DNA of 64,000 nt, taken from assembly GCA_965208945.1 (NCBI GenBank), contig OZ242366.1:1619827-1683826 (forward strand). The letters run 5' to 3'. Below, in pieces: positions 315-60,340 of this stretch (position 1 is its first letter; each line of letters starts with the position of its first letter). Source of the stretch: Bryobacterales bacterium (GTDB lineage: Bacteria; Acidobacteriota; Terriglobia; Bryobacterales; UBA6623). The notes beneath the pieces are model-generated. The model was not told the origin of the DNA, ran no database searches, and worked only from the letters and a program-made list of their open reading frames with translations. The translations under genes and the position numbers were made by a program.

Positions 315-409
315 TTGAACAGTACGTTGAGCACGGCAAGCAAGCGCAACGAAGTCCTGGCGGTCGTATCGCGTGCTTCGACCGTTGGGTGGTGAGAAAT
401 GCAGGCTAG
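315..409 (+). repeat. R1 hairpin element, right half only (truncated at its centre)
   Basis: ttgaacagtacgttgagcacggcaagcaagcgcaacgaagtcctggcggtcgtatcgcgtgcttcgaccgt-gggtggtgagaaatgcaggctag matches the right arm of the full copies at 40136-40320 and 47096-47280. The left arm is absent. Confidence 0.85.
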
Positions 410-701
410 TCGCACGGTCATACGCAAAACGATCATCGTTGTCGGGCTGTCTGAACTTTTGCACCGCGATCGGTCCATACTGGAAGCGTTTGCTAATTCG
501 GAAACAGTCCAGGCTCCTCTGCGAAAATGTGCCAACAATGGATGGTGCAAGGCGAGGGGAATGCGATTGCAAGAGGATCGCCTCCCGTCTCGTCCGGGCG
601 ATGGTTCTGTCGGCCGGCCAGCCAGCAGATTCAGATATCGTTCGAACGGCTTCTGGCTTGAGCCATGCGGTTCTCACCGGGAGACGCTTGACGGAGAGAA
701 A

Positions 702-1871
702 GTGACCCAGCGGCGAAATAACGACAAACTTGCGATTACCCTTGGAGTCGAGGAGGAGTTCTTCCTTATCGATCCGGAGACCGGCGATTTGCTCCGCGAA
801 CCCGATGAGGGCATCTACGAGGCCTGCCAGAAAAGGACAGAACGGCACAAGTTCGTTCGCGAGTTTCTGCGGTCACAGATCGAAACGAACACTTGCGTCT
901 GCACGTCGGTCGAGGAATTAAGGTCGGCCATTTGCGAAACACGTCGGATTTTGGTCCAGACAGCCGAAGAGCACGACGCTTCAGTGCTGGCAACCTCCAC
1001 GCATCCGTTCGCTTCTTGGGAGACGCAGGTAGTCACTCCCGGTCAACGATACCGCGATTTCGTGATCGCGTTTCAGGAATCCTTGCGTCGGTTCCTCGTT
1101 GGCGGAATGCACATTCATGCCGGGTTCGGTAACAGGGATTCGCGAGTGCGCATCATGACCGCCCTCCGTCGTTACCTGCCGCTGCTCCATGCCCTCTCCG
1201 GCTCTTCTCCTTTCAACGAGGGTCGCTTGACAGGTTTCAAATCGTACAGGCTGAATCTGGTAGGCAATTTGCCACGAACAGGTCTGCCGAATGCCTTGGC
1301 CTCGTGGGACGAATACGATGACTTGGTGAACGACTACCTTCGAATGCGCTTCATACGGGACGGCAGTGAGTTGTGGTGGGACATCCGGCCGTCACGCTCC
1401 TTTCCAACGGTGGAATTGCGTATCTGCGACATCTGCACGCGCGTCGAAGACGCAATGTGCATCGTTGCCCTTTTCGCATCGCTTGTCCGGTACTTGCTTC
1501 GCCGGGACGAGGAGGGTGCTCTGCCACAGGACCCGCCCATCGAGATCATCGCCGAGAACCGCTGGCTTGCACAGAGGTACGGCGTGATGGCCTTCCTCGG
1601 CGACCCCGAGGAAGGCGGGCGAATGGACATCGATGATTACACGGCTCTGCTGATCGAAGAACTCGCAGACGATGCCCAAGCCCTCGGATGCCACGCCGAG
1701 CTGCGCCATGCCAAAGAAATCGTTCGAGAAGGGACTGGAGCGGACCGGCAGGTCGACCATTTCAGGCTGCGCCGGCTGGAAGGGGATACCGAAGCCGAGG
1801 CATTGCGCTCGGTCGTAAAGCTCGCGGCTGACGAGACGAAGGAAGGAATCGGGCTCGCCGAATTTGCATAA
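702..1871 (+). CDS. carboxylate-amine ligase, YbdK / glutamate-cysteine ligase 2 (GCS2) family
   Basis: ORF 399-1871 contains the family-typical N-terminal block ITLGVEEEFFLIDPETGDL and the later IHAGF...RICD blocks. The first 100 codons start at an ATG inside the R1 repeat and look non-coding. GTG 702 is preceded by ggagagaaa and leaves 12 aa before the conserved block. ATG 561 is an alternative start. Confidence 0.82.
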   Translation: MTQRRNNDKLAITLGVEEEFFLIDPETGDLLREPDEGIYEACQKRTERHKFVREFLRSQIETNTCVCTSVEELRSAICETRRILVQTAEEHDASVLATSTHPFASWETQVVTPGQRYRDFVIAFQESLRRFLVGGMHIHAGFGNRDSRVRIMTALRRYLPLLHALSGSSPFNEGRLTGFKSYRLNLVGNLPRTGLPNALASWDEYDDLVNDYLRMRFIRDGSELWWDIRPSRSFPTVELRICDICTRVEDAMCIVALFASLVRYLLRRDEEGALPQDPPIEIIAENRWLAQRYGVMAFLGDPEEGGRMDIDDYTALLIEELADDAQALGCHAELRHAKEIVREGTGADRQVDHFRLRRLEGDTEAEALRSVVKLAADETKEGIGLAEFA

Positions 1872-2256
1872 CGGCCGCGCGGCGGCACGGCTCGTCAATG
1901 TAGCGAATGCCACCAATGAGCTGAATCGAATCTTTTCGGAGGTGCGTACCGAACAACGATGTCGGCGATCACGCGCGCCCTTGTCACACCCCTGCTCCTT
2001 GTTCTCACATCGTCCAGCGGCTCGGCGGAGAGGAGCGAGTTTCGTGCTTCCGTCGGACCCCGAGGCCCCCGCGCAGAAAGTGACGCTCGACGCTCTACGG
2101 GCTAATGCGAAACCCAAGAAAGTCAACATTTTCCCGAACATGCAACGGAGAACTCACGCTCCAAGCATGTCGGCCTTTCGGCAATCGATAGGCCCGGTGT
2201 CGTACAGATTGGAATGTAAGCCTGCGAGGCAGGCTGAGGCTCGCTGTCCCTGTCAA

Positions 2257-4014
2257 CTATTTCCCGGACACAGGTTTCGCAACGACGGGTGGCCGCGGAA
2301 TATTACCCGGCGGGCGACGTACCGACACGTCTTCGAACAAGAGCGACGGGACGACCAGGGATGCCATGATCCCCGATCGGCGGGAAGGCATCGCGAAACC
2401 GAATGGGCCGAACGACGGGCTGCTATGCCGGAACAGGATGGTGTGGTTGGTAATAGCCTCGGACGCCGCGACGATATCTCGGAAGCTGCTCTCCGACAGC
2501 CCAGTCAGCACAGCCTCGCGAATGAGTTCCTCGCGGCCGTCTGGAAAGACCTTGACCGCGACCACCGCCCTGATCAACCGGCCTCCTCTTGAGCGGCCGC
2601 CCCGCCTTGCCTGGAACCGGCCCGCACCTGGTTCCTGGAGCCGTCTCACGACAATGCCGTACTCCAACTCCCTCTCTTCCAGCAAGGCGAGGAACTCTTC
2701 GGTCATCTCCTCTGCCGTCAGACCACTGCTGGACGTCAGGAGGAGGTTGGACGGGGCCGGGCCGCCAGCCCGCATATGGCCGTTGCTCTGAGGGATCCCC
2801 TCTATCGGATTGCGAGTCGCCAGCAGCGTCTTGAGCATGCCGCGTTGGACGAGCACCGTCTCGCGGGCGGGGACACCTTCGTCATCTACCGCGTAGCCTC
2901 CCCAAAGCAGGCCCTGCTCGTTTTCCCTGAGCGCCGGGTTGTCCATTATTGCCAGGAATCGTGGCAGGACTCGACTGCCAAGCTTGTCCTGGAACGGATT
3001 GGTCAAGCGGTCCCCTACCCGACGCGTCCGCTGGTCGTCCGTGATGGGAGCCTTCTGGACGAGCAGCCGTGGAACCAGAACTTGGCGCACCAGTTCCGCC
3101 GCAGCCTGCCCCTCGAACAGCACGGGCCCTGCGTAGCGTTCGAATACCATTGCCTGCCGAAGGTCCTCGAGCCGCCCGGCCAGCGCCTGGCCTTGCTCGG
3201 CCAGCTCATCAAGGCCAGGGAGGTCGGCCCAAATGCGGCCAAATGCGGTGAACGAGTCGGAAATCTCCGTTCCATCGTCAGCTCGTGTCCCTGCCATTAC
3301 GGTCACCATGGCAGTGGGATCATCGCGGATGAACGACGATCCCTCACTGTTCGCGTACTGGACGCGAACATGCCGCGCACGTGCATCGACCGAAGAGATG
3401 TGGATGTCCGGGTGCTCCCTGAATACAGCCGACATGTCGGTTGTGAGCGAGCGGATAGGGTCTGCCTCCGCAACGGGAAGAGCCGGGCCGCCTTCGTGCT
3501 TGTACGGATCCTCGATGCTGAAGTCCGGCGTTTCCTCGACGACGGTTTCGTTCTGGAGCACAGCGCGCTTCTTCGCGATCCGCTCGAGAGCGTCCTTGTA
3601 TGCGCGGTCCGTCGCCAGCCAGATCGCGCGACGGAGCTCTTCATAGTCGTCTTCCAGGGGCAGCAAAGCAGGACCGAAAGAAATATCCTCTAACGAGGTG
3701 AAGTCCGGTAGGGAGTAGAAGTTGGTGTTGTCAAGATCACGGTCCCCGACCCTGACCTCGACATGCAGGGTTCGGCTTGCACTCTCTCCACTTCTGGAGA
3801 GACCGCCCAAGGATGCTGTGGCGCCAATCGTTGTGACCTCCTGAACAGTGTACGAGACGAAGTACGGCTGTTCCAGTTCGCCCAGCCGCAGTTCGTTCAT
3901 GCTGCGAGACAATTCGTCCTTCATCGCCTGCATCATCACGCTGGGCTGCGCGATGGCCGGGAGCCATGCGATGCACAGCGATAAGAAAAGGGTGTAGATC
4001 CGCGTGCAGTTCAT
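2257..4014 (-). CDS. TldD/PmbA-family (peptidase U62) protein, PmbA-like partner, N-terminal signal peptide
   Basis: 585-aa ORF with signal-like N-terminus MNCTRIYTLFLSLCIAWLPAIAQP. Its C-terminal half resembles PmbA/TldD (GGYAVDDEG, GIPQSNGH...). It is translationally coupled to the upstream TldD-like gene by a 4-nt overlap at 4011-4014. Confidence 0.78.
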   Translation of the reverse strand: MNCTRIYTLFLSLCIAWLPAIAQPSVMMQAMKDELSRSMNELRLGELEQPYFVSYTVQEVTTIGATASLGGLSRSGESASRTLHVEVRVGDRDLDNTNFYSLPDFTSLEDISFGPALLPLEDDYEELRRAIWLATDRAYKDALERIAKKRAVLQNETVVEETPDFSIEDPYKHEGGPALPVAEADPIRSLTTDMSAVFREHPDIHISSVDARARHVRVQYANSEGSSFIRDDPTAMVTVMAGTRADDGTEISDSFTAFGRIWADLPGLDELAEQGQALAGRLEDLRQAMVFERYAGPVLFEGQAAAELVRQVLVPRLLVQKAPITDDQRTRRVGDRLTNPFQDKLGSRVLPRFLAIMDNPALRENEQGLLWGGYAVDDEGVPARETVLVQRGMLKTLLATRNPIEGIPQSNGHMRAGGPAPSNLLLTSSSGLTAEEMTEEFLALLEERELEYGIVVRRLQEPGAGRFQARRGGRSRGGRLIRAVVAVKVFPDGREELIREAVLTGLSESSFRDIVAASEAITNHTILFRHSSPSFGPFGFAMPSRRSGIMASLVVPSLLFEDVSVRRPPGNIPRPPVVAKPVSGK

Positions 4015-5726
4015 TGGAGGCCTCCCGGAGCGAACAGGTGCCCACTCTGCGCCAGGCCCGAGGGTGCTGGCAGAATAGGCGGGCGTTGCTGGGATTTCTC
4101 TTTTCGTTGCACTTCAATCTGGGAGACCAATATCGAAGGTGAGATCGCACTGACCGGGACGCCTCCGGATTCCGCACCGCAAACCCCGTTGAACGTGGCG
4201 CTTTCCTTCCCGCCTGCTGCGATCTTGCTGAATGTTGTGAGCGGTGTGCCGATCAGGTCGACTCCGCGCACGAGTTCCTCACGGCCGTCCAGGTAGATGC
4301 GGTACACCATGGTCGGGAGGACATTGAATGAATTCGGCCGGCGCCGGCCCGTGAATGTGAAGCCCCCCTGGATGGCGTCAAAGAGCAATCCGTACTCCTT
4401 GCCCTCGTCCCGCAACCGCTTTAGGAGCATTGTCTTGAGTTCGCTTTCCGACAGCGGCTTCTCCACTTCGACGAACAGGTTCGACTGCCTCGCAACAGCG
4501 GCGAACCCGGGTTGTTTCCTCCCGTGGCCGTTGGAACCGGAGAACCCCTCGATCGGTTTGCGAGACATGAGGAACCCCTGCAATAAGCCCTGGTCGATAA
4601 CCACCACCCGCTGACCTTTGACTCCCTCGTTGTCAAACCTGAAGGAGCCGGCGAGATCGGTCCCCCCGGCGTGGCGGATGGTCGGATCGAACACGACAGA
4701 GAAAGACTCGGGCAGCACCGATTCGCCAGTCATGTCCTTGAAGGTCTGGGCGTCGTCGGCCTCGCGCTGCCGGTGACCCTCGACACGGTGACCCAGGATT
4801 TCATGGAAAAAGACACCGCTGGCACGTCCGGAAAGAATGGCGGGCCCACTGTACGGTTCCGCAACCGGTGCGATTCTCAGGGCCTGGAGATCGGCGATAA
4901 CCTGTCTGACGGTTTCCATAACTGTCTCTTCGTCGGGCATGCCGTCATCGTTGAAAGCAAAGAACTGCTCATATCGGGGCAGGTTCATCCCATCTTCGGC
5001 CTTCGTCGAACCAAAAACGCCCAACCGGTACGACGTGCGAGAGGTTCTGATACTGGTCCCCTCGCTGTTGACGTACCATCGCGTCTCAGCCACGGTCGAG
5101 AAGCTCACTGAACCGGTGTAAATGTGATCGGCCTCGGCGAACGGCGCTGAGTACCGCTTGAGCTTTTCGGCCCACCCGGAGGCTTCTGTCGTGATGGACC
5201 GTGGCGTCTCCCTGAATTCCACTGCCTGCTGCGGGGAAAAGTCGGCAGCCCGGTTTTCTTCATCCACCTTGATCCGGACACTTGCTTCAACCCGGGAAAG
5301 CCGCTCGGTTGCTTGCCTGTATTTTCTGTCCGTCGCAAGCCAGAGGACGGTTTGTAGCGCTTCGGGGTCGGATACCGGTACCTGTGTTCGCGACCGTACC
5401 CGGAAGTCGAATCCCCTGCCGGTTGGATGAGTGTTGTCCAGGTCCTTGTCGCCCACACGAAGATCAATGTCAAGGACACGGTCCTCACTTCGCGAATTCT
5501 GAGAGACCGCACCGAACGAAGCAACTACCGAGGCTCGGTCCTGCTGTGTGATCTCGTAGCTGAGGAAGAAGAGCGGAGGGCTCTCTTCGGAAAGGACCTC
5601 TATGGAGCGATCAAGTTCCGCCGCCATTACGCCGAGCACGTCGACTGCGGCATCTGCGACCCTGATGAATGACAGGAAAGCGATTGTGCACAGCACGATC
5701 CTCTTGAATTGATTGGCGAACTTCAT
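4011..5726 (-). CDS. TldD-like zinc metallopeptidase, signal peptide
   Basis: Contains FHEILGHRVEGHR (HExxxH-type TldD motif) and GFSGSNGHGR. The start was moved to ATG 5726 (MKFANQFKRIVLCTIAFLSFIRVADA, a signal peptide) instead of ORF start 5816. Confidence 0.83.
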   Translation of the reverse strand: MKFANQFKRIVLCTIAFLSFIRVADAAVDVLGVMAAELDRSIEVLSEESPPLFFLSYEITQQDRASVVASFGAVSQNSRSEDRVLDIDLRVGDKDLDNTHPTGRGFDFRVRSRTQVPVSDPEALQTVLWLATDRKYRQATERLSRVEASVRIKVDEENRAADFSPQQAVEFRETPRSITTEASGWAEKLKRYSAPFAEADHIYTGSVSFSTVAETRWYVNSEGTSIRTSRTSYRLGVFGSTKAEDGMNLPRYEQFFAFNDDGMPDEETVMETVRQVIADLQALRIAPVAEPYSGPAILSGRASGVFFHEILGHRVEGHRQREADDAQTFKDMTGESVLPESFSVVFDPTIRHAGGTDLAGSFRFDNEGVKGQRVVVIDQGLLQGFLMSRKPIEGFSGSNGHGRKQPGFAAVARQSNLFVEVEKPLSESELKTMLLKRLRDEGKEYGLLFDAIQGGFTFTGRRRPNSFNVLPTMVYRIYLDGREELVRGVDLIGTPLTTFSKIAAGGKESATFNGVCGAESGGVPVSAISPSILVSQIEVQRKEKSQQRPPILPAPSGLAQSGHLFAPGGLQ

Positions 5727-5881
5727 TGGTTGGTTCCCGAGTACCATGGCGCTAAAGAAGGGCAGTGCGATGGCCGCCATTATCATAAGCGAGCCGTAGT
5801 CGAACTTCGTGGACACCTGAGTGGCATCGCCATGGGGAGTGGAAGGTACAAAGATCGAAACTATCCCGCCCCAGTTTCGTA

Positions 5882-6436
5882 TTGCATCAGGCGAGGTCGA
5901 TCGGTGTGTCTGACACCCTCAATTTCCTCGGCTGGGAGCGATTGGACAACCAATTGCATAGCCACAACCTGAACCAGGACAACCGAGGTCCTGCAGACGC
6001 CGTCATATCTCCAAACTGTCTGCCGATTCGTCAAACATCCATTGTCCGGCCGGCCTTATGGCGTAATGGACTCTGGGAAAGAGCCATCGAGCGGCACGAA
6101 GATCTGAAGTCGAAACACCGTGTGGGAACTTATGGGGCCACCATCGGCGAGAAGCGGTTGTTGGAGTTGACCGACATCATCGACTCTGCGGGTTTCATCC
6201 GAGCCGGAACTCTGGTTCTGTTGGCCGATGACACGCTTCTTACCGCCGGGTCACAATACAGCGAGTCGGCATTGCGCATCACCGCAGGTACGGGGTCCGC
6301 CGCCATCGTCACCCGTATCCGCCTGACGCCGCCAGGGAAAGACCAGCCCAAGGTGCTCTATTTCGACAGTGACGACGAACTACCTAGCGCAAACGGTAGT
6401 ACGCTCTTCGCCGAGCACACCGAAGAATGGCGCTGA
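5882..6436 (+). CDS. hypothetical protein (start uncertain; may begin at GTG 6122)
   Basis: 184-aa ORF in a lower-GC stretch. Only the C-terminal ~100 codons show the GC3-rich codon pattern of neighbouring genes. No recognisable family. Confidence 0.3.
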   Translation: MHQARSIGVSDTLNFLGWERLDNQLHSHNLNQDNRGPADAVISPNCLPIRQTSIVRPALWRNGLWERAIERHEDLKSKHRVGTYGATIGEKRLLELTDIIDSAGFIRAGTLVLLADDTLLTAGSQYSESALRITAGTGSAAIVTRIRLTPPGKDQPKVLYFDSDDELPSANGSTLFAEHTEEWR

Positions 6437-6511
6437 CGGAGGGGTTTCGTGACCCGGATCAAAACCCCGATCAACGGGGATTCCGAGATTGTTGGGAACA
6501 AAAGAGTCAAG

Positions 6512-6587
6512 TGGTGAGACGGCTGGGACTCGAACCCAGGACCCACGGCTTAAAAGGCCGTTGCTCTACCAACTGAGCTACCGTCCC
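6512..6587 (-). tRNA. tRNA-Lys (anticodon UUU), CCA encoded
   Basis: The reverse complement reads GGGACGG-TA-GCTC-AGTTGGTA-GAGC-A-ACGGC-CTTTTAA-GCCGT-GGGTC-CTGGG-TTCGAGT-CCCAG-CCGTCTC-ACCA. This is a full cloverleaf with a 7-bp acceptor stem (one G:U) and anticodon TTT. Confidence 0.95.
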
Positions 6588-6730
6588 GGCGTGGAAGACT
6601 CTTTCCTCAGATTACCACCGCCGCTTCGCCAACCGGAGTTGTTCCAGGCGCCATGGACAGATGACACCCCGCCGCCGACTGGAGAGAGCTTACGTCCCAT
6701 AAACGGGAACTATTCCCGCGTCCCGCCGTC

Positions 6731-9538
<2,808 letters not shown>

Positions 9539-9909
9539 AAACAGCGCCCTCCGGGGAGTTCCGCGGCTGGAAGGGAACTACGAGTTAATTATATGAGACG
9601 AGGCTGGTGGCGGGTCAAAGCAGGTTGTTACACGCTTTGAGCACCTCCCCATGCCGGGGCTAATGGTTTACAGATTGGTAATCGTTCCATTTGAAAGAAG
9701 AGTAAACAGATCGGCACAACCCCGGCAATCGATTGTACTCATGTCACGATGATGAGGAACCGCCATCCGAAGAGGCGCTCGAAATCGCTTTCTGTTGACA
9801 CAACTCTCAAGAATCGGGATTGCCTTCATGTACATAAGCACCAAGCCGCCGGATAAACGGCAGCTACAATAGTCGATCCCAGAAGGCGAGCCTGTCCTCT
9901 GTCCCGAGC

Positions 9910-11322
9910 ATGATCAATCCTGTAATCCTCAGCTTCCTTGCCTTCCTGATTGGATTCACTCTGATCGGGGCATACGCTTCCCGCCGCAAGACAAGCACTA
10001 CCGACGATTACCTGCTGGCAAGCCGCAGCATCGGTCCCTGGTTCACGGCGATGTCCGCCGTGTCAACCAACAACAGCGGCTTCATGTTCATCGGCCTGAT
10101 CGGAACGAGCTACACGATGGGGTTGTCTGCGATCTGGATCATGTTCGGGTGGATCTTCGGTGACTACCTGATGTGGTTTTGGATCCATCGGCGTCTGCGT
10201 GAGAAAAGCGAGGCAGATCATTTCCGCACGATTCCCTCGTTTCTTGGAGCGGCATTGCCGGGCCGTAGGAGCCTGGTTCGAGCCACGGCGGCAGTAGTTA
10301 CGATCACTTTTCTGGGAACGTATGCGGCGGCCCAACTCAACGCCGGCAGCAAGGCGCTGCATGTACTCTTCGGTTGGCCATACGCCGTGGGCGCGATCGT
10401 GGGTGCGGTGATCGTGGTGATCTACTGCTTCGCCGGCGGCATTCGCGCTTCCATTTGGACGGATGTCGCGCAATCGATCAACATGATCATCGCGATCTGG
10501 CTACTGTTCATTCTGGCCCTGTTGGAAGTCGGCGGATTAGGTGGGCTGTGGTCGAAACTGGAAGCGATCGACCCGCAACTGATCAGCCTGAGTCCGCCCG
10601 ATCCGCGCTTTGGTTTCGTGCTTTTCATCTTTGGTTGGTTCGGTGCGGGCATCGGAGTCGTCGGGCAGCCGCACATTATGGTCCGCATGATGTCGATCCG
10701 CTCAGGGCGGGACATCGCCAAGGCGCGGGACATCTATCTGGTTTGGTATTTGCTGTTTTCGTTTGCGTGCTACGGCATCGCGTTCGCCTGCCGCATCTTG
10801 ATACCCGATGTGGGCGCTTTCGATGCGGAATTGGCGCTGCCAACGCTGGCCTCTGCATACCTTCCCGGAGTGTTGGTAGGGCTGGTTCTCGCGGGTTTGT
10901 TCTCGGCGACGATGTCGACAGCGGATTCGCAGGTGCTGTCCTGTTCGGCGGCGCTGACTCAGGACTTGTTCTCTTCGTGGCGTGACTCGTACGCCAAATC
11001 GAAGTTCGCGACTCTGCTGGTGGCGGCGGTCGTGCTGGCCATAGCTCTGTTCGCCAGCCAAAACGTATTTGCGCTGGTCACGCTGTCCTGGTCGGCGTTG
11101 GGCGCTTCGCTCGGTCCGCTGCTCGTGGTGCGCGCCATGCAGTGGCGGATCAACACATCGGCAGCCGCGGGTATGATGGCGGTAGGGCTGGCGGGGGTAA
11201 TCGTCTGGGGCGGCGTTCTGGGGTATGGTGGCGACCTCTATGAGATCATCCCGGGAATGGCGCTCAGCATGGTTGCTTATCTGATCCTGCGGCCTGCTGC
11301 CGGCGCAGATTCATCCGCGTAG
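9910..11322 (+). CDS. sodium:solute symporter (SSF) family transporter
   Basis: 470-aa polytopic membrane protein with SSF-like blocks (FAGGIRASIWTDVAQS, MSTADSQVL). Confidence 0.88.
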   Translation: MINPVILSFLAFLIGFTLIGAYASRRKTSTTDDYLLASRSIGPWFTAMSAVSTNNSGFMFIGLIGTSYTMGLSAIWIMFGWIFGDYLMWFWIHRRLREKSEADHFRTIPSFLGAALPGRRSLVRATAAVVTITFLGTYAAAQLNAGSKALHVLFGWPYAVGAIVGAVIVVIYCFAGGIRASIWTDVAQSINMIIAIWLLFILALLEVGGLGGLWSKLEAIDPQLISLSPPDPRFGFVLFIFGWFGAGIGVVGQPHIMVRMMSIRSGRDIAKARDIYLVWYLLFSFACYGIAFACRILIPDVGAFDAELALPTLASAYLPGVLVGLVLAGLFSATMSTADSQVLSCSAALTQDLFSSWRDSYAKSKFATLLVAAVVLAIALFASQNVFALVTLSWSALGASLGPLLVVRAMQWRINTSAAAGMMAVGLAGVIVWGGVLGYGGDLYEIIPGMALSMVAYLILRPAAGADSSA

Positions 11323-12090
11323 TTCGAGCGAAACGGGGCAGTGGTCAGACCCCTCGACCTCGCTGAGGATCGTGCAGTCCTGAACCTCATCGACGAGGTC
11401 ATCGCTTACGAAGAAGTAGTCGATGCGCCAGCCGATATTCGCGGCGCGAGTGCTGAACAGGTAGCTCCACCAGGTGTAGTGGCCCGCACCGCCGTGAAAG
11501 AGGCGGAAGGCGTCGACGTAGCCGTGGGCTACGAACTGATCCAGACACTCACGCTCTACCGGCAGGAAGCCGGAGTTGTTGCGATTCTCCCGGGGGCGCG
11601 CGAGATCGATTTCCTTGTGGGCGGTGTTGTAATCGCCGGTGATGATCAGCCGTCTCCCTTGACGCCGCAACCGGTTGCAATAGTGCAGGAAAGTATCGTA
11701 GAAGTCGAGCTTGTATCCGAGCCGTTCGAGACCGCGCTGGCTGTTGGGAAAGTAGCAGTTGACAAGCGTGAAGGGCTCGAACTCGGTGATGAGCACGCGG
11801 CCCTCTTCGTCGAAGCGTTCGATGCCCAGCCCAGCAACAGGCTCGGCTTTGAGCGTGACCGGGCTATCGTTGCGGATCCAGGTGGCGACGCCGCTATACC
11901 CTTTTTTCCTGGCTGAGTGGAAGTGGGCATCGTAGCCGTCGGGGTCTTCGAGTTCGGGCGGGAGTTGCTGCGGATGCGCTTTTGTCTCTTGCATGCACAA
12001 GATGTCGGGCTTCTCTGCTTCGAGCCACGCGAGCAGACCTTTGCGGCCGACGGAGCGAAGGCCGTTGACGTTCCAGGTGATGATGCGCAT
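11311..12090 (-). CDS. xth: exodeoxyribonuclease III
   Basis: MRIITWNVNGLRS...CMQETK...SDHCPV is typical of ExoIII/AP endonuclease. The start was moved to ATG 12090; the 53-aa upstream extension of the ORF looks non-coding. Confidence 0.9.
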   Translation of the reverse strand: MRIITWNVNGLRSVGRKGLLAWLEAEKPDILCMQETKAHPQQLPPELEDPDGYDAHFHSARKKGYSGVATWIRNDSPVTLKAEPVAGLGIERFDEEGRVLITEFEPFTLVNCYFPNSQRGLERLGYKLDFYDTFLHYCNRLRRQGRRLIITGDYNTAHKEIDLARPRENRNNSGFLPVERECLDQFVAHGYVDAFRLFHGGAGHYTWWSYLFSTRAANIGWRIDYFFVSDDLVDEVQDCTILSEVEGSDHCPVSLELRG

Positions 12091-15615: not shown

Positions 15616-15629
15616 GTCTGTCTCTCGTC

Positions 15630-15988: not shown

Positions 15989-16173
15989 CTAGCCTGCATT
16001 TCTCACCACGAAGTGAGGTGAAGTGCGTGAGAGGGCCGTCAGGACGAGCCGCGAGCCGCTTGGCGCGCGCAGGCGTACTTGAACCGTACGTTGAGCACGG
16101 CAAGCAAGCGCAACGAAGTCCTGGCGGCCGTATGGCGCGCTTCGGCCGTCGGGTGATGAGAAATGCAGGCTAA
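15989..16173 (+). repeat. R1 hairpin element, complete (~185 bp)
   Basis: Termini are ctagcctgcatttctcaccac ... gtgatgagaaatgcaggcta. The internal sequence is nearly identical to 40136-40320. Confidence 0.9.
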
Positions 16174-16231
16174 GGTTTTTCACGAGTCACGAATCACGGC
16201 TTTTTCCGTGGCTCGTTTGGTGCATGTGGGT

Positions 16232-16256
16232 ACTGAAGCCCTTCAGTCTTGTTTTT
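16232..16256 (+). terminator. terminator-like hairpin plus T-rich tail (copy 1)
   Basis: actgaag-cc-cttcagt followed by cttgttttt. The stem is short, so this is weak. Confidence 0.25.
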
Positions 16257-16469
16257 GCCGCCCCGGCCTGCTAGGCATGAGGACAGGGAGGCGGCCAGGC
16301 GCAGTCCGTGCGGGTCGCGAATCAAGGCGTTCACTAGCCGCAAGTCACTGATTTTAAGGTTTTTACAAGATACGAAGCACGGCTTTTGTTCACGAGTCAC
16401 GAAACACGAATCACGGCTTTTATGTTTTCACGAAACACGAATCACGTGGCTCGAACGATACATGTGGGT

Positions 16470-16493
16470 ACTGAAGCCCTTCAGTCTTTTTTT
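16470..16493 (+). terminator. terminator-like hairpin plus T7 run (copy 2)
   Basis: actgaag-cc-cttcagt followed by c-ttttttt. Confidence 0.3.
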
Positions 16494-16955
16494 GCCGCCC
16501 CGGACGGCGTAGCATGAGGACAGCGAGTCGGGAATCCTGGCCCTCGCGAAGAAAAAAGCGGGCAAAATCGAGGAGGTGAGAGTACGCGCATGCGTCCGCG
16601 GCGAAGTTTGTCCTTCGTGGCGCCGGCCACCCCGGCCGACAGCACAAGCTGCAAGCCGCCCGCGCCGGCAACACGGCCTTTCAGGTTTTTCACGAATCAC
16701 GAGTCACGCAACACGAATCACGGCCTTTATGCTTTTCTCGCTGCTTTCCTGCGCGTTGCGGCGCGGCATGGGGCGGCTATGGGGCGCGGCATGGGCAGGG
16801 CCGCCGTCCCCCGCACCGGCAACACGGCCTGTTAGTTTTCACGAATCATGCAACACCGCATTTATCGCCGTTCGGCTCGCCGTGGGTGCGAAGGGGTCGC
16901 ACAACCGAAAACCGCCGTCCGGACCGCCGTGCCCGCCGCCAGGTCACGGCTTCCC

Positions 16956-17138: not shown

Positions 17139-17344
17139 CTAGCCTGCATTTCTCACCACGCGGCGAGGCGAAGTGCATGAGAGGGCCGTCAGGACGAGGC
17201 GCGAGTCGGGCGGAGGAAAAAGGCGCGCGCAGTCGTACTTGAACCGTACGTTGAGCACGGCAAGCCAGCGTTGCGAAGGAAAAGCGAAGTCCTGGCGGTC
17301 GTATCGTGTGCTTCGGACGTCGGGTGGTGAGAAATGCAGGCTAG
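17139..17344 (+). repeat. R1 hairpin element, complete (206-bp variant with cgggcggaggaaaaagg insert)
   Basis: ctagcctgcatttctcaccacg ... gggtggtgagaaatgcaggctag. Ends 16 nt before the start of the next gene. Confidence 0.9.
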
Positions 17345-36605: not shown

Positions 36606-36782
36606 TGTTGTTGCGCTTGATTGCCGTGTTCAATGTAGCATCAAGTACGCCTCCACGCTCCAGCAGGCTCGCTCGTCCTGACAGACCTCTCCACATTTCG
36701 CCTCGTCGCGAGGTGAGAAACGCAGGTCCCTGATGCTGAGCAAGTCCCTTCTCCAGTAGACTGTCGCTGAGCAACCCTCTGC

Positions 36783-39373: not shown

Positions 39374-39638
39374 CTAGCCTGCATTTCTCACCACGTGGCG
39401 AGGCGAAGTGGGTGAGAGGGCAGCCAGGACGAGGCGCAAGCCGGGCGGAGGAAAAAGGCGCGCGCAGGCGTACTTGCCAAATCGCCTCCTTCATCCCTCG
39501 GGTCACGAAACACGGCCTCTCCGGTTCACCGGCCATCAGACATTTCTTCTGGAGCGAACTAGGCCCCCGTCAAGGGTTTTCACGAATCACGGCCTTTTCT
39601 CGCGTGCTCCGACCGGCAGGTGGTGAGAAATGCAGGCT
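39374..39638 (+). repeat. R1 long variant (R1b, ~265 bp, different core plus heptamer tract)
   Basis: The left end is the same as R1 (ctagcctgcatttctcaccacgtggcgaggcgaagtg). The core is ..atcgcctccttcatccctcgggtcacgaaacacggcc..ggccatcagacatttcttctggagcgaac..ggttttcacgaatcacggcctttt. The right end is ggtggtgagaaatgcaggc. Confidence 0.85.
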
Positions 39639-40135: not shown

Positions 40136-40320
40136 TTAGCCTGCATTTCTCACCACGTGGCGAGGCGAAGTGCGTGAGAGGGCCGTCAGGACGAGGCGCG
40201 CGCCGCTTGGCGCGCGCAGACGTACTTGAACAGTACGTTGAGCACGGCAAGCAAGCGCAACGAAGTCCTGGCGGTCGTATCGTGTGCTTCGACCGTCGGG
40301 TGGTGAGAAATGCAGGTTAG
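40136..40320 (+). repeat. R1 hairpin element, complete (archetype, 185 bp)
   Basis: ttagcctgcatttctcaccac ... gtggtgagaaatgcaggttag. Internal perfect hairpins are gcgcgcgcc-gctt-ggcgcgcgc and acgtact-tgaac-agtacgt. Confidence 0.92.
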
Positions 40321-43465: not shown

Positions 43466-43488
43466 GCTTCCGGCTCGTACGTGATCGT

Positions 43489-43961
43489 TTAGCCTGCATT
43501 TCTCACCACGTGGCGAGGCGAAGTGCGTGAGAGGGCCGTCAGGACTAGCAGCCCGTGTCTAAAGTCCCGTGGAAGGCGCGGCGGGCTCCTGCGGTCGCTC
43601 GGCGCGAAGTGAGGAGGATGGCGATCCGGGTGATCTCCTCCGACGAACGACAAAGCCGACGGCCGCAAATGTCCGTCGCCCAAAGGGTTACGCGCCGCTT
43701 CCGCTCGGCCGCGCGGAGAGCGAGGCGCCACGTTCCTGGCACGGCTAGGCGTTACGCCAATGGTGCCGGGGCGCGTAACGCCGCCCGCGTGACTTTAGAC
43801 ACGGGCTGCTAGGCGCAAGCCGGGCGGAGGAAAAAGGCGCGAGCCGCTTGGCGCGCGCAGGCGTACTTGAACAGTACGTTGAGCACGGCAAGCAAACGCA
43901 ACGAAGTCCTGGCGCTCGTATCGTGTGCTTCGACCGTCGGGTGGTGAGAAATGCAGGTTAG
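43489..43961 (+). repeat. R1 element interrupted by the R3 MITE
   Basis: The R1 left arm runs to ..gggccgtcaggac (43545). R1 resumes at ggcgcaagccgggcggaggaaaaagg (43812) and ends gtggtgagaaatgcaggtta. Confidence 0.9.
43546..43811 (+). mobile_element. R3 MITE (~262 bp plus TA duplications), nested in R1
   Basis: Terminal inverted repeats are TA-gcagcccgtgtctaaagtccc ... gggactttagacacgggctgc-TA. An uninterrupted R1-type site caggacTAggcgcaagccggg exists at about 55896-55916. Confidence 0.8.
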
Positions 43962-44492: not shown

Positions 44493-44610
44493 ATAGCCTG
44501 CATGTCTCACCACGTGGCGAGGCGAAGTGCGCGGGAGGGCCGTCAGGACGAGGTGCGCCGCTTGCGCCAGTAACGCGGCATGTAATGTTTTCACGAATCA
44601 CGGCGTTTGC
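44493..44610 (+). repeat. R1 fragment (left arm plus short heptamer tract, no right end)
   Basis: atagcctgcatgtctcaccacgtggcgaggcgaagtgcgcgggagggccgtcaggacgagg ... gttttcacgaatcacggcg. Confidence 0.75.
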
Positions 44611-47095: not shown

Positions 47096-47280
47096 CTAGC
47101 CTGCCTTTCTCACCACGTGGCGAGGCGAAGTGCGTGAGAGGGCCGTCAGGACGAGGCGCGAGCCGCTTGGCGCGCGCAGGCGTACTTGAACAGTACGTTG
47201 AGCACGGCAAGCAAGCGCAACGAAGTCCTGGCGGTCGTATCGCGTGCTTCGACCGTCGGGTGGTGCGAAATGCAGGCTAG
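47096..47280 (+). repeat. R1 hairpin element, complete
   Basis: ctagcctgcctttctcaccac ... gtggtgcgaaatgcaggctag. Confidence 0.92.
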
Positions 47281-47415
47281 GCGCGAGCCGGGCTGAGGAA
47301 AAAGACGCGAGCAACAAGGCCTTTCAAGGTTTTTCACGAATCACGAGACACGAGACACGAATCACGGCCTTTTAATCGCCTGCTTCGACCGTCGGGTGGT
47401 GCGAAATGCAGGCTA
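47281..47415 (+). repeat. R1-related fragment (core remnant, 4.5-unit heptamer tract, right terminal repeat)
   Basis: gcgcgagccgggctgaggaaaaag..ggtttttcacgaatcacgagacacgagacacgaatcacggcctttt..cgaccgtcgggtggtgcgaaatgcaggcta. Confidence 0.8.
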
Positions 47416-49113: not shown

Positions 49114-49136
49114 CTCCGGGGCTCGATGAGCCGCGT

Positions 49137-49691
49137 TCAGCCGCGCGATCTCGAGCGGCTGCGCGGACGAATTGCCTTGCGGCGCGAAGGGCCCGTCTCG
49201 CCGCCGCGAGACGACAGATCCTCGCTGGGCAGGGTGTTCTGGCAGTCCGCGCAATACCCTCCCACCTCTGTGCGGCTGACGAGTATCTGGAAACCGAAAC
49301 CCGACTCGATCTGCTCGCGCAGGCTGCGGAGAGGATCGCCGAAAAACTCCTGGACCACACCGCAACGAAGGCAGACGATGTGTGCGTGTTCTTGCTTCAG
49401 CCGCGTCTCGTAGTAATGGTGCTCGCCCCCGAAGTGCATCAGGTCGAGTTCGTCGATCAACCCCTCGTTCTTGAGGAGTTTGAGCGTGCGGTAGACGGTG
49501 ACCCGGTTGATCTTGGGGTCTCTTTTGATGGCCAACTCGTAGAGTTGATCGGCGTTGAGATGGTCGTGGGCGTTGTTGATGATCTCGAACAGCAACTCCC
49601 GCTGCCGCGTCAGGCGAATACCGCGCTTGCGGAGAGGAGCCCGTACTGCGGCCGCCGCGTTTGTTTCACGTCCTTCGGGATTTTGTTTCAC
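49137..49691 (-). CDS. fur: Fur-family transcriptional regulator
   Basis: LTRQRELLFEII...VYRTLKLLKNEGLI...HAHIVCLRCG...YCADC. GTG start. Confidence 0.9.
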   Translation of the reverse strand: MKQNPEGRETNAAAAVRAPLRKRGIRLTRQRELLFEIINNAHDHLNADQLYELAIKRDPKINRVTVYRTLKLLKNEGLIDELDLMHFGGEHHYYETRLKQEHAHIVCLRCGVVQEFFGDPLRSLREQIESGFGFQILVSRTEVGGYCADCQNTLPSEDLSSRGGETGPSRRKAIRPRSRSRSRG

Positions 49692-49865
49692 AAGGAGGCC
49701 TCATGTTATCACAGCGGCTGCGGCGGGATCGTTGCACGGACGCGGCGGAAGGCCTCGCGACGCAAGCCGGTGAGAGTGTTGGAATGTGGCGGTTGATGAG
49801 TGAACGGAAAGCTCGGGGCAAACCGCATCACCGCTCGACTGCAGCGGGGACTATTGCCACGGCTG

Positions 49866-56013: not shown

Positions 56014-58677
56014 CTGAGGGCGTTCTCCTCGTGTGCCCTTCTCTTTCTCGCCGCGAGCGTACTGCTGAACCCCGTGGTCGCCTGGCCGCAGGAATCCAAA
56101 GCGGACTGGGCCTCGGGACTGCCCCCGGCGGCTGCCGTGCAGGTCGATTTCTCGCGGGACATCGCCCCCGTCTTCCAGGCGAACTGCGTTGCCTGTCACG
56201 GTCCGGCGCAGCAGATGAATGGTCTCCGCCTCGACAGCCCGGAGCGGGCCTTGCAAGGGGGCTATTCGGGACCCGTCATCAAGCCCGGTGACAGCGCCGC
56301 CAGCAAGCTCGTCCTGCTCGTTGCCGGCGTGCCGGCTCCGGGACACAAGGAAGGTCTTGTCATGCCGCCCGCCGGGGAGCGGCTGAGCGCCGGGCAAGTC
56401 GGTTTGCTGCGGGCATGGATCGATCAGGGAGCGCGGTGGGCGGAAGCCCCGAAGCCGGCCGTCGCTGAGGCGCAAGAGCGATCACCTGCGAACAGCAGCC
56501 ACTGGGCTTTTATTCCGCCGAGCCGGCCGGAGTTGCCCGATGTGCAACAGGGCGATTGGGTCAGGAATCCGATTGATGCCTTCATCCTGCGCCGGCTCGA
56601 GGCGGAGGGCATCCAACCCTCCCCCGAAGCCGACCGAAACACGCTCGTTCGGCGCCTGAGCTTCGATCTGATCGGACTTCCTCCGACCCCCGGGGAAGTG
56701 GCTGCCTTCCTGGCGGACGAGCGCCCCGAAGCCTACGAGGAACTGGTCGGCCGTCTCCTGGATTCGCCGCACTACGGCGAGAAATGGGCGCGTCACTGGC
56801 TCGACTTGGCGCGCTATGCAGACAGCGACGGCTACGAGACCGACCAGCTCCGTCCGAACGCATGGCGCTATCGCCACTGGCTCGTCGAGACCCTCAACCG
56901 GGATATGCCCTTCAATCAGTTCACGATCGAGCAAATCGCAGGCGACTTGCTGCCTGGAGCGACCTTGCGGCAGAGAGTGGCAACCGGCTTTCAGCGAAAC
57001 ACCCTCAGCAACCGCGAGGGCGGCGCCGATCTCGAGGAGTTCCGCACCGAGCAGGTCGTTGATCGCGCGGCCACTCTGGGCACCGTCTGGCTGGGCCTGA
57101 CGGTCGGCTGCGCCCGCTGCCACGACCACAAGTACGACCCCGTCAGCCAGCAGGAGTTCTACCAGCTCTACGCCTTCTTCAACAGCGCCGACGAGCTGAA
57201 CATCGACGCGCCGTTGCCCGGCGAGATGGGCCCCTACCTCAGCACACGGGCCGAGTATGAGAGCAAGAGGCGTGAACTGCTGGCTCCCCTCGAAACCGGG
57301 ATTGCCGAGTTGCAGGCCGCTTGGGAGAAGAGGCTGCTGGAAACCGAGGCGAACCCGGGCCGCGACCACCTTTGGGACCGCGCCTGGGAGGTTCTGGGGC
57401 TGGTATGGGGCGGCGGGCTGGGCGAAGGCCAGCTCGAAGGGCAGCGGATCGTCAATCTCGACCCGTCCCGGCGAACCAAAGACCAGGCCGAGCGCTTGCG
57501 TGACTACTTCATCAAGTACGGCTCCATCATCGACAAGGAGCGCTACGAGGAGCTGAAGCTCAAGGAACTCAGCGGGAAGCTCGCCGAGCTGGCCAAGTCC
57601 TATCCGAAACTCACGCGGGCGCCGACCCTGGTCGAGAACCCCCGGGGACGGCGGACCTACATCCATCTGCGCGGCTATTTTCGCAACCACGGGATCGAAG
57701 TGGCGCCGGGCGCGCCGGCGGTGCTGCACCCGTTGCCCGCCGATCCGGAACCGAACCGTCTCACCCTGGCGCGCTGGATCGTGGCGGACGGCAACCCTCT
57801 GACCGCGCGCGTGACCGTCAACCGGGCCTGGCAGGAGCTGTTCGGCCGCGGCATCGTCTTCACGTCCGACGACTTTGGGCGGCGGGGCGAAAAACCCTCT
57901 CATCCGGAGCTGCTCGATTGGCTCGCCACCGAGTTCGTTCGACAGGGTTGGAGCCTCAAGAAGCTCCACAAGCTGATCGTGATGTCGGCCGCGTACCGTC
58001 AATCGTCGAAGGCACGCCCGGCATTGGACGTGCGGGACCCCGGCAACGTGCTGCTTGCGCGGCAGTCTCGCGTGCGGCTGCCGGCGGAGGCGGTGCGCGA
58101 CGCCTCGCTGGCGGTCAGCGGCTTGCTGAACACCGCGGTCGGCGGTCCCGCCGTGCGGCCCCCTCAGCCGGAAAGCGTCATCATGGAGTCGTTCGAAGTC
58201 CCCTGGGAGGTGGACGAAGGCCCCGACCGGTATCGCCGCGGACTCTACACCTTCATCCAGCGGACCGCCCCGTTCGCCCAGTCGGTGACGTTCGATCTGC
58301 CGGACCCGGGACAAACGTGCAGCCGTCGGGATCGCTCGAATACGCCCCTGCAGTCCCTGACCTTGCTGAACGATCCGGTTTTTTTCGAGGCCGCCCAGGC
58401 GCTTGCCGCGCGTGTCCTGACCGAGCAGCAGGGCGGCTTCTCCGAACGAATCGACTATGCCTTCCGTCTCTGTCTGGCGCGGGAGCCTGACAGCGCCGAG
58501 CGCGATCGCCTGGCGGCCTACCTGCGCCACCAGAGCGGGATTCTCGATCAGGAACCGGACAACCCCGAGGCGATGCTGCCGCTCGAGGTGGAAGGAGTGG
58601 ATCGAAATCAGGGGGCCGCCTGGGTCGCGCTCAGCAGTGTCCTGCTGAATCTCGACGAGTTCATCACGCGGGAATGA
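55846..58677 (+). CDS. PSCyt (CxxCH) - DUF1549 - DUF1553 protein; 5' end uncertain
   Basis: NCVACHGP haem-c motif. DUF1549-like (NPIDAFI..L...G) and DUF1553-like (GCARCHDHKYDP) blocks. The signal-like segment AFSSCALLFLAASVLLNPVVAWPQ starts only at about 56020, and every in-frame ATG/GTG/TTG upstream of it (55759, 55846 ...) lies inside repeat unit A or B (55759 in A, 55846 in B). Confidence 0.82.
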   Translation: MIDLHISPCGEAKWVRGPSGLGASRAEEKGPHRLACATGSVRFFTNHETRNTNHGLLRAFSSCALLFLAASVLLNPVVAWPQESKADWASGLPPAAAVQVDFSRDIAPVFQANCVACHGPAQQMNGLRLDSPERALQGGYSGPVIKPGDSAASKLVLLVAGVPAPGHKEGLVMPPAGERLSAGQVGLLRAWIDQGARWAEAPKPAVAEAQERSPANSSHWAFIPPSRPELPDVQQGDWVRNPIDAFILRRLEAEGIQPSPEADRNTLVRRLSFDLIGLPPTPGEVAAFLADERPEAYEELVGRLLDSPHYGEKWARHWLDLARYADSDGYETDQLRPNAWRYRHWLVETLNRDMPFNQFTIEQIAGDLLPGATLRQRVATGFQRNTLSNREGGADLEEFRTEQVVDRAATLGTVWLGLTVGCARCHDHKYDPVSQQEFYQLYAFFNSADELNIDAPLPGEMGPYLSTRAEYESKRRELLAPLETGIAELQAAWEKRLLETEANPGRDHLWDRAWEVLGLVWGGGLGEGQLEGQRIVNLDPSRRTKDQAERLRDYFIKYGSIIDKERYEELKLKELSGKLAELAKSYPKLTRAPTLVENPRGRRTYIHLRGYFRNHGIEVAPGAPAVLHPLPADPEPNRLTLARWIVADGNPLTARVTVNRAWQELFGRGIVFTSDDFGRRGEKPSHPELLDWLATEFVRQGWSLKKLHKLIVMSAAYRQSSKARPALDVRDPGNVLLARQSRVRLPAEAVRDASLAVSGLLNTAVGGPAVRPPQPESVIMESFEVPWEVDEGPDRYRRGLYTFIQRTAPFAQSVTFDLPDPGQTCSRRDRSNTPLQSLTLLNDPVFFEAAQALAARVLTEQQGGFSERIDYAFRLCLAREPDSAERDRLAAYLRHQSGILDQEPDNPEAMLPLEVEGVDRNQGAAWVALSSVLLNLDEFITRE

Positions 58678-60122
58678 TCATGGATTTTGAACGAATGACG
58701 GACCTCCGGTCCCGCCGGAGCTTTCTTTGGGACTGCGCTTCCGGCGTGGGCATGATGGGGCTGGCTCACCTGCTGGCGCTCGAAGGCCGGACCGCCGATG
58801 CGCGCTCGTCGCTCAATCCGATGGCGCCCCGCGAGCCGCACTTCGAGCCCAGGGCCAAGAGCATCATCTACCTGTTCATGTCGGGCGCCCCCAGCCAGGT
58901 GGACCTCTTTGACCCGAAGCCGAAACTCCGCGAGTGGCACGGCAAGCCGGTGCCCGAATCGTTGCTGAAGGACTTGACCGATACCGTCCTGAAGGGCGGC
59001 ATGGCCATGGGCAGCCCGCGGGAATTCAAGCGCTACGGCCAGGCCGGGATGCACTTTTCCGATTATTTGCCCCACATCGCGCCCTGGGCCGACGACATCT
59101 GCATGATCCGCTCGATGTACACCGAGCACGCCAATCATCACCCGGCGCAATTGCTGATGAACTGCGGCGTCCCCCGCCAGGGCCATCCGTCTCTCGGCTC
59201 GTGGCTGGCCTACGGCTTGGGCAGCGAATCGCAGAGCCTGCCGGGTTTCGTCGTGATGACATCCAGCTCCGGAAAGGGCATCGAGGGCGGCGCGTCGCTC
59301 TGGTCGAACGGCTTTCTGCCGTCCACCTATCGCGGCGTGACGTTTCGCAGCCAGGGCGATCCGATCCTGCACGTCTCCAATCCCGATGGGGTCAGCGATC
59401 GTACGCAGCGTGCCCGCCTCGACATCCTCAAAGACCTCAATGAGCGCCACTACCAGCGGACCGGCGACGTCGAGATCAACTCCCGCATCGCCGCCTACGA
59501 GCTGGCGTTCCGCATGCAAACCGCTACGCCGGAACTGACCGATTTCTCCCGCGAGTCGGAAGACACGCTCGAGATGTACGGCATCAACGATGAAACGACG
59601 CGGCCGTTCGCGACCAACTGCCTGCTGGCGCGAAGGATGGTCGAGCGCGGCGTTCGGGTCGTGCAGCTCTATCACTCCACCTGGGACGATCACAGCGACC
59701 TGAACAAGAACTTGAAGAAGAACTGTGACATGACCGACAAGCCCTCCGCGGCGCTGCTCGCGGACCTCAAGCAGCGGGGCTTGCTCGACGACACGCTCCT
59801 GGTCTGGGGCGGCGAATTCGGACGCACCCCGATGAACGAGTTTCGTCGCGGCAACACGCCGGGCAAGGAGGGCCGCGACCATCATCCGTATTGCTTCAGC
59901 TTGTGGCTGGCCGGAGGCGGCATCAAGGGCGGTCAGGTCATCGGCGAGACCGACGAGTTCGGCTATCACATCGTCGAGGACAGGATTCACGTCCACGACT
60001 TCCAGGCGACCCTGCTGCACTGCCTCGGGCTGGACCATACGAAGCTGACCTACCGGCATCAGGGGCGCGATTTCCGGCTCACGGATGTCGGCGGCGAGGT
60101 GGTGCGGAAGCTGTTGGCCTGA
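58674..60122 (+). CDS. DUF1501 (sulfatase-fold) protein with twin-arginine signal
   Basis: RSRRSFLWDCASGVGMMG Tat signal and DUF1501 blocks (FMSGAPSQVDLFDPKP, GGEFGRTP, GRDHHP). The start overlaps the upstream stop (ATGA). Confidence 0.9.
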   Translation: MIMDFERMTDLRSRRSFLWDCASGVGMMGLAHLLALEGRTADARSSLNPMAPREPHFEPRAKSIIYLFMSGAPSQVDLFDPKPKLREWHGKPVPESLLKDLTDTVLKGGMAMGSPREFKRYGQAGMHFSDYLPHIAPWADDICMIRSMYTEHANHHPAQLLMNCGVPRQGHPSLGSWLAYGLGSESQSLPGFVVMTSSSGKGIEGGASLWSNGFLPSTYRGVTFRSQGDPILHVSNPDGVSDRTQRARLDILKDLNERHYQRTGDVEINSRIAAYELAFRMQTATPELTDFSRESEDTLEMYGINDETTRPFATNCLLARRMVERGVRVVQLYHSTWDDHSDLNKNLKKNCDMTDKPSAALLADLKQRGLLDDTLLVWGGEFGRTPMNEFRRGNTPGKEGRDHHPYCFSLWLAGGGIKGGQVIGETDEFGYHIVEDRIHVHDFQATLLHCLGLDHTKLTYRHQGRDFRLTDVGGEVVRKLLA

Positions 60123-60156
60123 GCATGACCGCGCATCGGGTTTCAGATCGAGTGGC

Positions 60157-60340
60157 TGGCCTGCATGTCTCACCACGTGGCGAGGTGAAGTGGGTGAGAG
60201 GGCCGTCAGGACGAGGCGCGCGCGGCTTGGCGCGCGCAGGCGTACTTGAACCGTACGTTGAGCACGGCAAGCAAGCGCAACGAAGTCATGGCGGTCGTCT
60301 CGCGTGCTCCGACCGTCATGTGGTGAGACATGCAGGCTAA
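60157..60340 (+). repeat. R1 hairpin element, complete, inserted in the 5' end of the second DUF1501 gene
   Basis: tggcctgcatgtctcaccacgtggcgaggtgaagtgggtgagagggccgtcaggacgagg ... cgaccgtcatgtggtgagacatgcaggctaa. Confidence 0.92.

Follow-up and report, generated by a model that had tools for sequence, protein, structure and literature searches.

A stretch of 64,000 nucleotides from a Bryobacterales bacterium of the Acidobacteriota (GenBank assembly GCA_965208945.1, contig OZ242366.1, positions 1,619,827 to 1,683,826; the whole stretch is referred to as the window) harbors a family of short, non-coding, nearly palindromic repeats, designated R1, which lie dispersed among genes of both strands and point almost uniformly in one direction. 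The window was scanned on both strands with an nhmmer profile derived from four complete copies. All 16 intervals listed in the original prediction, which had been made from the letters of the window, were recovered, every one of them on the plus strand; matches on the minus strand at these positions are weak self-matches of a near-palindrome (e.g. score 217 on plus vs 47 on minus). R1 pattern matches number 14 in the window, compared to 0.12 expected from shuffled sequences. The additional claim that no inverted copy is present did not hold, since a diverged, truncated copy lacking the right arm had been overlooked on the minus strand (36607–36726, profile positions 5–129, E 7e-22). A strain-level relative (L080; L numbers denote the related loci sampled here) shares this sole inverted copy. 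An overlooked inverted copy had been named in the prediction as a refuting observation; it occurred once, and the strand bias still stands: with nested and abutting pieces counted once, about 12 loci on the plus strand are opposed by one on the minus strand (binomial p ~0.003; 0.0018 for a count of 13:1).

Two subfamilies with common arms and different cores were distinguished, R1a (185 bp) and R1b (approximately 270–290 bp), the latter with a microsatellite of CACGAAT-type heptads ahead of the right arm. Full R1a copies, all on the plus strand as are the following ones, are located at 15989–16173 (185 bp, flanks CTAG/CTAA; nhmmer 15990–16172), 40136–40320 (target duplication TTAG/TTAG; nhmmer 40137–40319), 47096–47280 (CTAG/CTAG; nhmmer 47097–47279) and 60157–60340 (between two DUF1501 paralogues; nhmmer 60157–60340), and a full 206-bp variant is found at 17139–17344 (CTAG/CTAG; nhmmer 17140–17343). 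The copy at 47096 adjoins an R1b remnant at the internal CTAG of the latter; what is left of this remnant is the right part, from this CTAG to the right end (47281–47415; nhmmer 47357–47415). R1b is further represented by a 265-bp copy with R1 arms and a different core containing CACGAAT heptads (39374–39638; nhmmer 39375–39476 and 39597–39638), a 271-bp copy (52847–53117; nhmmer 52849–52934 and 53060–53116) and a left part with heptad array (54024–54215; nhmmer 54024–54121). The copy at 43489–43961 (nhmmer 43490–43555 and 43833–43960) is interrupted at its internal CTAG by a second element, MITE3, described below. Incomplete or diverged copies comprise a right half (315–409, profile positions 91–184; nhmmer 315–408, E 5e-31) preceded by unrelated sequence, a left arm with heptad tail (44493–44610; nhmmer 44494–44564), a diverged variant ending in a heptad array (53781–54023; nhmmer 53806–53981), a solo right end reading GTCGGGTGGTGAG, the right-arm version (55506–55540; nhmmer 55506–55539), and two abutting diverged variants within 55606–56013 (nhmmer 55639–55769 and 55851–55956). 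Gene calls based on codon usage and checked against Pfam confirmed that the genes beside these copies are encoded on both strands. Plus-strand R1 copies occur in both tandem contexts, e.g. at 43490 and 60157 between plus-strand genes and at 47097 and 53806 between minus-strand genes.

R1 is a mobile miniature inverted-repeat transposable element (MITE), i.e. a non-autonomous DDE transposon, of which each copy represents its own insertion. It is small (185–290 bp), non-coding, dispersed and polymorphic in presence, and carries perfect terminal inverted repeats of 17–20 nt (CCTGCATTTCTCACCAC...GTGGTGAGAAATGCAGG; 94 full copies), so that the ends read CCTGCA.../...TGCAGG between YTAR flanks. The two ends are identical over the first 17 nt only, beyond which the subterminal arms differ. 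The 4-bp flanks are identical left and right in 53 of 168 copies, compared to 22.2 expected and never more than 40 in any of 5000 permutations, and their first and fourth bases covary (CTAG-CTAG, TTAG-TTAG, TTAA-TTAA, TTAT-TTAT). Base frequencies at target positions 1 to 4 are C.60/T.35, T.84, A.81 and G.77/A.19. An empty site was found in L072 (...CGCAGG CTAG AGCG...) where L069 contains a 204-bp R1 copy between decayed duplicates. R1 copies decay, nest in one another and vary in presence between close genomes. A 4-bp YTAR target duplication is the signature of the IS5 family of insertion sequences (IS) (PMC5009759); the putative assignment of R1 to an IS5-type system is based on this duplication, and other families with 4-bp duplications are possible as well.

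Two of the partners proposed in the original prediction do not fit these termini. The IS630-like element of the window has unrelated ends (GTGTTCCGTCCCAGAAAT) and duplicates TA instead of 4 bp. The other proposal, movement as single-stranded DNA by an HUH/Y1 transposase (IS200/IS605-PATE or REP/RAYT-like) with the lagging-strand template orienting the copies, draws on the hairpin-forming R1 sequence with its strand-asymmetric folding and on an orientation bias tied to strand polarity as in IS608 (cited in PMC3971601). We consider it very unlikely, because perfect 17-nt terminal inverted repeats together with a covarying 4-bp YTAR duplication are foreign to that family and are the signature of DDE cut-and-paste transposition; moreover, no Y1 or RAYT domain was found among the annotated window genes. 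The cognate transposase with R1 termini that the prediction proposed to look for was not found either: in a limited sample of 1.2 Mb of related sequence, no transposase gene was located between R1 ends 0.5–4 kb apart. Neither of the two transposase genes of the window, that of the IS630-like element and one of the IS110 family (51386–52432), is a partner of R1. Two candidates for such an autonomous element, at 54027–55536 in the window and at 868–2099 in L012, lack a transposase. In the former, the R1b left part and the solo right end bracket a gene for a BNR-repeat (sialidase-like) protein (54204–55496, minus strand). With TTAA on one outer side and CTAG on the other, the flanks do not match, and the arrangement is therefore not a single mobilised unit. 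Minimal elements of 34–39 bp, consisting of left and right R1 ends back to back (L005:2691–2729, L100:13819–13852, L127:1919–1952 and L170:155–188), may have arisen by deletion or be remnants related to excision.

Exact matches to an 18-mer of the left arm are found in metagenome-assembled genomes (MAGs) of sponge-associated Bryobacterales, including two complete chromosomes, and a 26-mer of the right arm matches at least 120 metagenome contigs. The window itself maps to contig CBDEVC010000004.1 of GCA_965243455.1 (approximately 741–805 kb). In marine relatives (L201–L205), of which the syntenic region was identified via a penicillin amidase (76–86% protein identity), the SpoIIE-amidase-zincin gene order is kept with tight intergenic gaps, and both R1 and MITE3 are absent; the expansion of these MITEs is therefore specific to the R1-bearing clade. 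Further matches of the 18-mer lie in three contigs assigned to other groups: L001 to Gammaproteobacteria, L037 to Rhodothermales and L068 to Anaeromyxobacteraceae. The first two, short and derived from sponge MAG sets, have clear R1 copies and are probably mis-binned, with horizontal transfer as an alternative, while L068 gave no match to the R1 profile and is probably a chance match of the 18-mer.

A profile census of 79 sequences (645 kb) yielded 183 R1 sites. Both orientations exist genome-wide, and neighbors agree locally. Wherever an 8-kb block contains at least two exact R1 matches (14 blocks), these are strand-concordant, and adjacent pairs in the genome loci are concordant in 97 of 105 cases (8 discordant, p 1.5e-20), 59 of the concordant pairs being at least 1 kb apart. 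The co-orientation of R1 is far beyond chance. Independent metagenome contigs gave 39 concordant and 5 discordant pairs (39/44) for hits scoring at least 50, and 47:14 when very weak hits were added. The same polarity is followed by MITE3, a 265-bp MITE unrelated to R1 (ends CAGCCCGTGTCTAAAGTC, CTAG target): 12 of 14 MITE3 hits agree with the nearest R1, and the two others represent one element which is nested in a discordant R1 copy and agrees with the main polarity of its block. Heptad modules point in the same direction as R1 in 136 cases and in the opposite one in 3 (48:2 for those separated from every R1 hit by over 300 bp). Two unrelated MITE families follow one positional polarity, to approximately 90–95% locally.

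This agreement depends neither on the genes nor on copying between neighbors. In the R1 frame, 24 tandem contexts are co-oriented and 37 anti-oriented, and 43 convergent and 31 divergent contexts were counted; only four tRNAs were available in the sample for a comparison of their orientation. The flank composition of the target is symmetric under reverse complement, and therefore the target cannot orient the element. Nor does copy age matter, orientation being set early: the concordance is 43:2 in the youngest, best-preserved class of copies and 58:6 in the oldest, most decayed one, and a lineage-specific insertion (L069:7154–7357) agrees in orientation with its neighbors. That the co-orientation is a by-product of local copying, of the direction of flanking genes or of chance might be suspected from copies which abut or nest (47096–47415, 53781–54215 and 55606–56013) and from a 238-bp tandem duplication at 16207–16531. 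Each R1 copy, in contrast, has its own flanks and target duplication, and concordance extends over the 59 distant pairs and over hundreds of kilobases. Copies of the same block are no more alike than others (87.2% vs 88.7% pair identity, p 0.42), which argues against local copying; the mixed gene contexts and a p of ~1e-20 speak against gene direction and chance, respectively. We regard this explanation as extremely improbable in all three forms.

Folding of the two strands differs. R1 is a near-complete palindrome, and in all 84 full copies the top strand is the better-folding one (RNA −110 vs −84 kcal/mol; DNA parameters −58 vs −46 kcal/mol). The asymmetry is one inherited trait of the family, with 9 vs 3 wobble pairs in the consensus and a G-rich top strand (69 G, 49 C), rather than 84 independent observations; its bearing on orientation is suggestive only. 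The top strand of MITE3 also folds better, with a smaller asymmetry in the same direction. Such folding could be taken to mean that R1 inserts at random and that copies pointing the wrong way relative to the fork soon disappear or are selected against, e.g. because the more stable hairpin of the top strand does harm or promotes deletion on one of the template strands, and several discordant copies are indeed one-armed or interrupted (36607–36726 in the window, L052, L058, L010 and L033). The bias is, however, already present at 43:2 among the youngest copies, neither greater age nor a poorer hairpin sets the discordant copies significantly apart (Fisher p 0.31, Mann-Whitney p 0.33), both strands form very stable hairpins, and strong selection at hundreds of intergenic sites is implausible. 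With the folding asymmetry reduced to a single family trait, orientation-dependent loss is a possible but rather doubtful explanation. Selection holding one orientation per domain for a strand-specific function of R1, as structured RNA, single-stranded hairpin or polar chromosomal signal, is in our view unlikely. It would be in keeping with the G-rich top strand and its almost perfect hairpin with G-U pairs, with conserved arms around a variable core, and with the shared polarity and folding preference of MITE3. Against it stand the missing relation to flanking transcription, an Rfam scan that gave a tRNA match only and none for R1, and the behavior of the copies, which decay, nest, and come and go between close genomes like neutral insertions and are wholly absent from the syntenic relatives at 76–86% protein identity.

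On a larger scale, R1 orientation is linked to base composition. The AT skew at third codon positions, taken as the difference between genes co-oriented and anti-oriented with R1, was −0.080 (z −4.0, a value that none of 2000 random block flips reached), and four of five genomes, window included, share its sign. A pre-specified replication with 98 non-redundant metagenome loci gave −0.061 (z −2.9, one-sided p 0.003). The AT skew of the whole sequence in the R1 frame was −0.015 in the genome loci and −0.014 in the metagenome set; the top strand of R1 is thus the strand with slightly more T than A, whatever the gene direction. Global k-mer strand skew exceeded that of random flips in both sets (k=6, 0/300 and 5%; k=8, 0/300 and 1%). 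To our knowledge, replication is the only well-established source of a gene-independent strand asymmetry of this kind. In the complete chromosome OZ241991.1, sampled in 29 blocks of 8 kb, approximately 12 alternating domains of R1 orientation were found instead of the simple flip at replication origin and terminus that had been suggested: plus from 4.97 Mb across the start of the record as far as 0.20 Mb, minus at 0.97–1.18 Mb, plus at 1.30–1.85 Mb, minus at 1.95–2.90 Mb, and a number of short ones between 3.6 and 5.0 Mb. In two cases, the boundary of a domain lies inside a single block (L052 and L058). The block-wise polarity of the third-position AT skew tracks R1 orientation (p 0.0036), and the best of approximately 400 two-arm partitions of the chromosome fits this polarity no better than R1 orientation, which has no free parameter; this comparison is not decisive.

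Besides R1, the window contains further mobile and repetitive elements. MITE3 is present on the plus strand at 43545–43812, nested in the R1 copy 43489–43961 with the polarity of R1, and at 51016–51282. The left boundary of the second copy coincides exactly with an IS630-like insertion sequence (49869–51017, minus strand; TA duplicated within CTAG), the transposase gene of which (49866–50954, minus strand) encodes DDE_3 and HTH domains. A copy of 91% identity is found in OZ244625.1 (L023:7374–8000); an apparent synteny between the window and this locus is due only to the common IS630-like element. The right end of the same MITE3 copy is truncated (..GACACGGGCT followed by tgtctatt) just ahead of an IS110-family transposase gene (51386–52432, plus strand; region 51283–52432), which may reflect insertion of an IS110-type element into the MITE3 terminus. 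The internal CTAG of R1 appears as a hot target, with repeated nesting of MITE3 or a second R1 in the orientation of the host copy (43545–43812 and 47096–47415 in the window, L073:2648–2886, L001:117–354). Heptad microsatellites (CACGA[AG]N) consist of two to five units followed by CACGGCCTTT, the number of units differing among copies. Solo arrays of the form (CACGA[AG]N)n-CACGGCCTTT, the same module as inside R1b, are located on the plus strand at 16176–16207, 16386–16455 and 16686–16727 (16176–16727 overall). Heptad microsatellites, which occur inside R1b as well as solo, are also present at 47334–47366, 53044–53062, 53987–54018, 54177–54208 and 55776–56008. The 'cacgaatcacgg' motif described earlier alongside R1 corresponds to this module or its remnants. 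Each unit of the tandem duplication (approximately 238 bp, 16207–16531) contains a terminator-like hairpin and a subsequent T run (GGGTACTGAAGCCCTTCAGTCTTGTTTTT). A PIN-domain toxin gene (53123–53491) lies between R1 copies; the two tandem DUF1501 paralogues with R1 between them (58674–61799 region) adjoin a gene for a planctomycete-type cytochrome (PSCyt/PSD1), and a type I restriction-modification methylase gene (HsdM, 61927–63933) is found at the window end. An exact look-up of two window proteins returned no record.

Among the three options named in the original prediction, a polarity of the chromosome or a link to replication is the best fit, as the orientation is regional, gene-independent, common to MITE3 and tied to a gene-independent skew. 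We infer that R1 orientation is fixed at insertion, the transposition complex and the replication fork meeting in an asymmetric way, and rate the chances for and against this mechanism as about even. According to it, the landing place would dictate the orientation, which could account for nearly uniform domains of approximately 20 kb to more than 1 Mb that include an unrelated MITE family. The positional cue would be the direction of fork movement, read by the transposase complex at insertion, and the complex might tell the R1 ends apart by their differing subterminal arms. The alternating domains would then be segments of replichores reshuffled by later inversions, which moved MITEs and composition skew together. 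In a stronger form, which we put forward tentatively and hold to be improbable, an IS5-type DDE system would read fork polarity near-absolutely and tell apart the two almost identical ends of its MITEs, making R1 and MITE3 a dated record of fork direction. If this is true, the approximately 12 domains of OZ241991.1 would directly map recent intra-replichore inversions in the chromosomes of sponge symbionts. Alternatively, the elements would have been co-opted as strand-polar chromosomal signals.

Several observations weigh against the mechanism at the fork. GC skew, for which a comparison had been proposed, is not associated with R1 orientation in whole blocks or at third codon positions in either data set; it is usually the stronger replication signal, so this lack is unusual and does not agree with a simple replication reading. 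The domains of OZ241991.1, being about 12 rather than two arms, need several unproven inversions. Motifs of DnaA, ParB, GyrB and FtsK were looked for in every sampled locus and not found, and neither origin nor terminus was located. A cognate transposase was not found in the 1.2 Mb of related sequence. Coding strands show no consistent bias relative to R1, as the sign reverses between the data sets (40:60 in the genome loci, 55:45 in the metagenome set). In L077, a single run of co-directional genes contains opposite R1 copies at a distance of 3 kb, so the orientation rule is strong and not absolute. The best single skewed hexamer, GTGCCG, seemed at first a context-independent polar motif (z 5.9); it was not replicated in the metagenome set (205:183) and was rejected. 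In a published survey, strong orientation biases of insertion sequences were found mainly in Firmicutes, with little or inconsistent bias in IS5-type groups (PMC3971601).

The same survey describes family-specific orientation bias of insertion sequences relative to replication, together with the TnsE pathway of Tn7 and the binding of transposases to the beta clamp (Gomez et al. 2014, PMC3971601). Precedent for replication-oriented insertion thus exists for IS families and Tn7, but not for MITEs, nor for IS5-type elements at such strength, and no literature report of replication-oriented MITEs was found. Replication-biased insertion sequences resemble R1 in a non-random orientation with respect to a chromosome-wide polarity, which is unexplained by gene co-orientation, and where a genome contains two such families, their biases may agree or be opposed (PMC3971601). 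Unlike these, R1 and MITE3 are non-coding with identical outer ends, so that there is no transposase gene to define or select an orientation; their local bias of approximately 90–95% is found in Acidobacteriota, and its link to replication is our interpretation. IS5 elements and their MITE derivatives share with R1 the 4-bp YTAR duplication and the preference for CTAG (PMC5009759), as well as terminal inverted repeats and an intergenic location; a transposase with CCTGCATTTCTCACCAC ends was not found, and IS5 is not known for an orientation polarity of the strength seen in R1.

Members of IS200/IS605 (IS608, ISDra2) likewise form hairpins and have an orientation tied to the fork via the lagging-strand template, but they have neither terminal inverted repeats nor target duplications and depend on a Y1 HUH transposase. 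Integron attC arrays (e.g. the VCR repeats of Vibrio) are also co-oriented imperfect palindromes (60–140 bp) with strand-specific folding, extending over more than 100 kb; R1 differs by its own YTAR duplications, an irregular spacing among ordinary housekeeping genes and its presence on both strands genome-wide. No integrase was found among the annotated window genes and the R1 termini are unlike GTTRRRY, no direct search having been made for either. ERIC, Correia/NEMIS and RUP elements are, like R1, intergenic imperfect palindromes of 100–200 bp forming long hairpins. They act through transcripts containing them, unlike R1 with its orientation unrelated to flanking transcription.

The co-orientation of R1 is real, reproducible and moderately surprising, and belongs with the replication-linked orientation bias of transposable elements, to which we connect it by inference. 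Cut-and-paste MITEs with identical ends are expected in either orientation, and R1 and MITE3 depart from this across several genomes and independent metagenomes. If replication is not the cue, the polarity itself is unexplained. If it is, integration that is coupled to the fork and discriminates between ends would also be a property of IS5-type elements, and of a phylum with weak composition skew, the Acidobacteriota, and R1 would offer a testable case of a DDE transposase sensing strand polarity. MITE orientation would then also be a practical marker in uncultured symbionts, both for the structure of replichores and for inversions that took place in the past.

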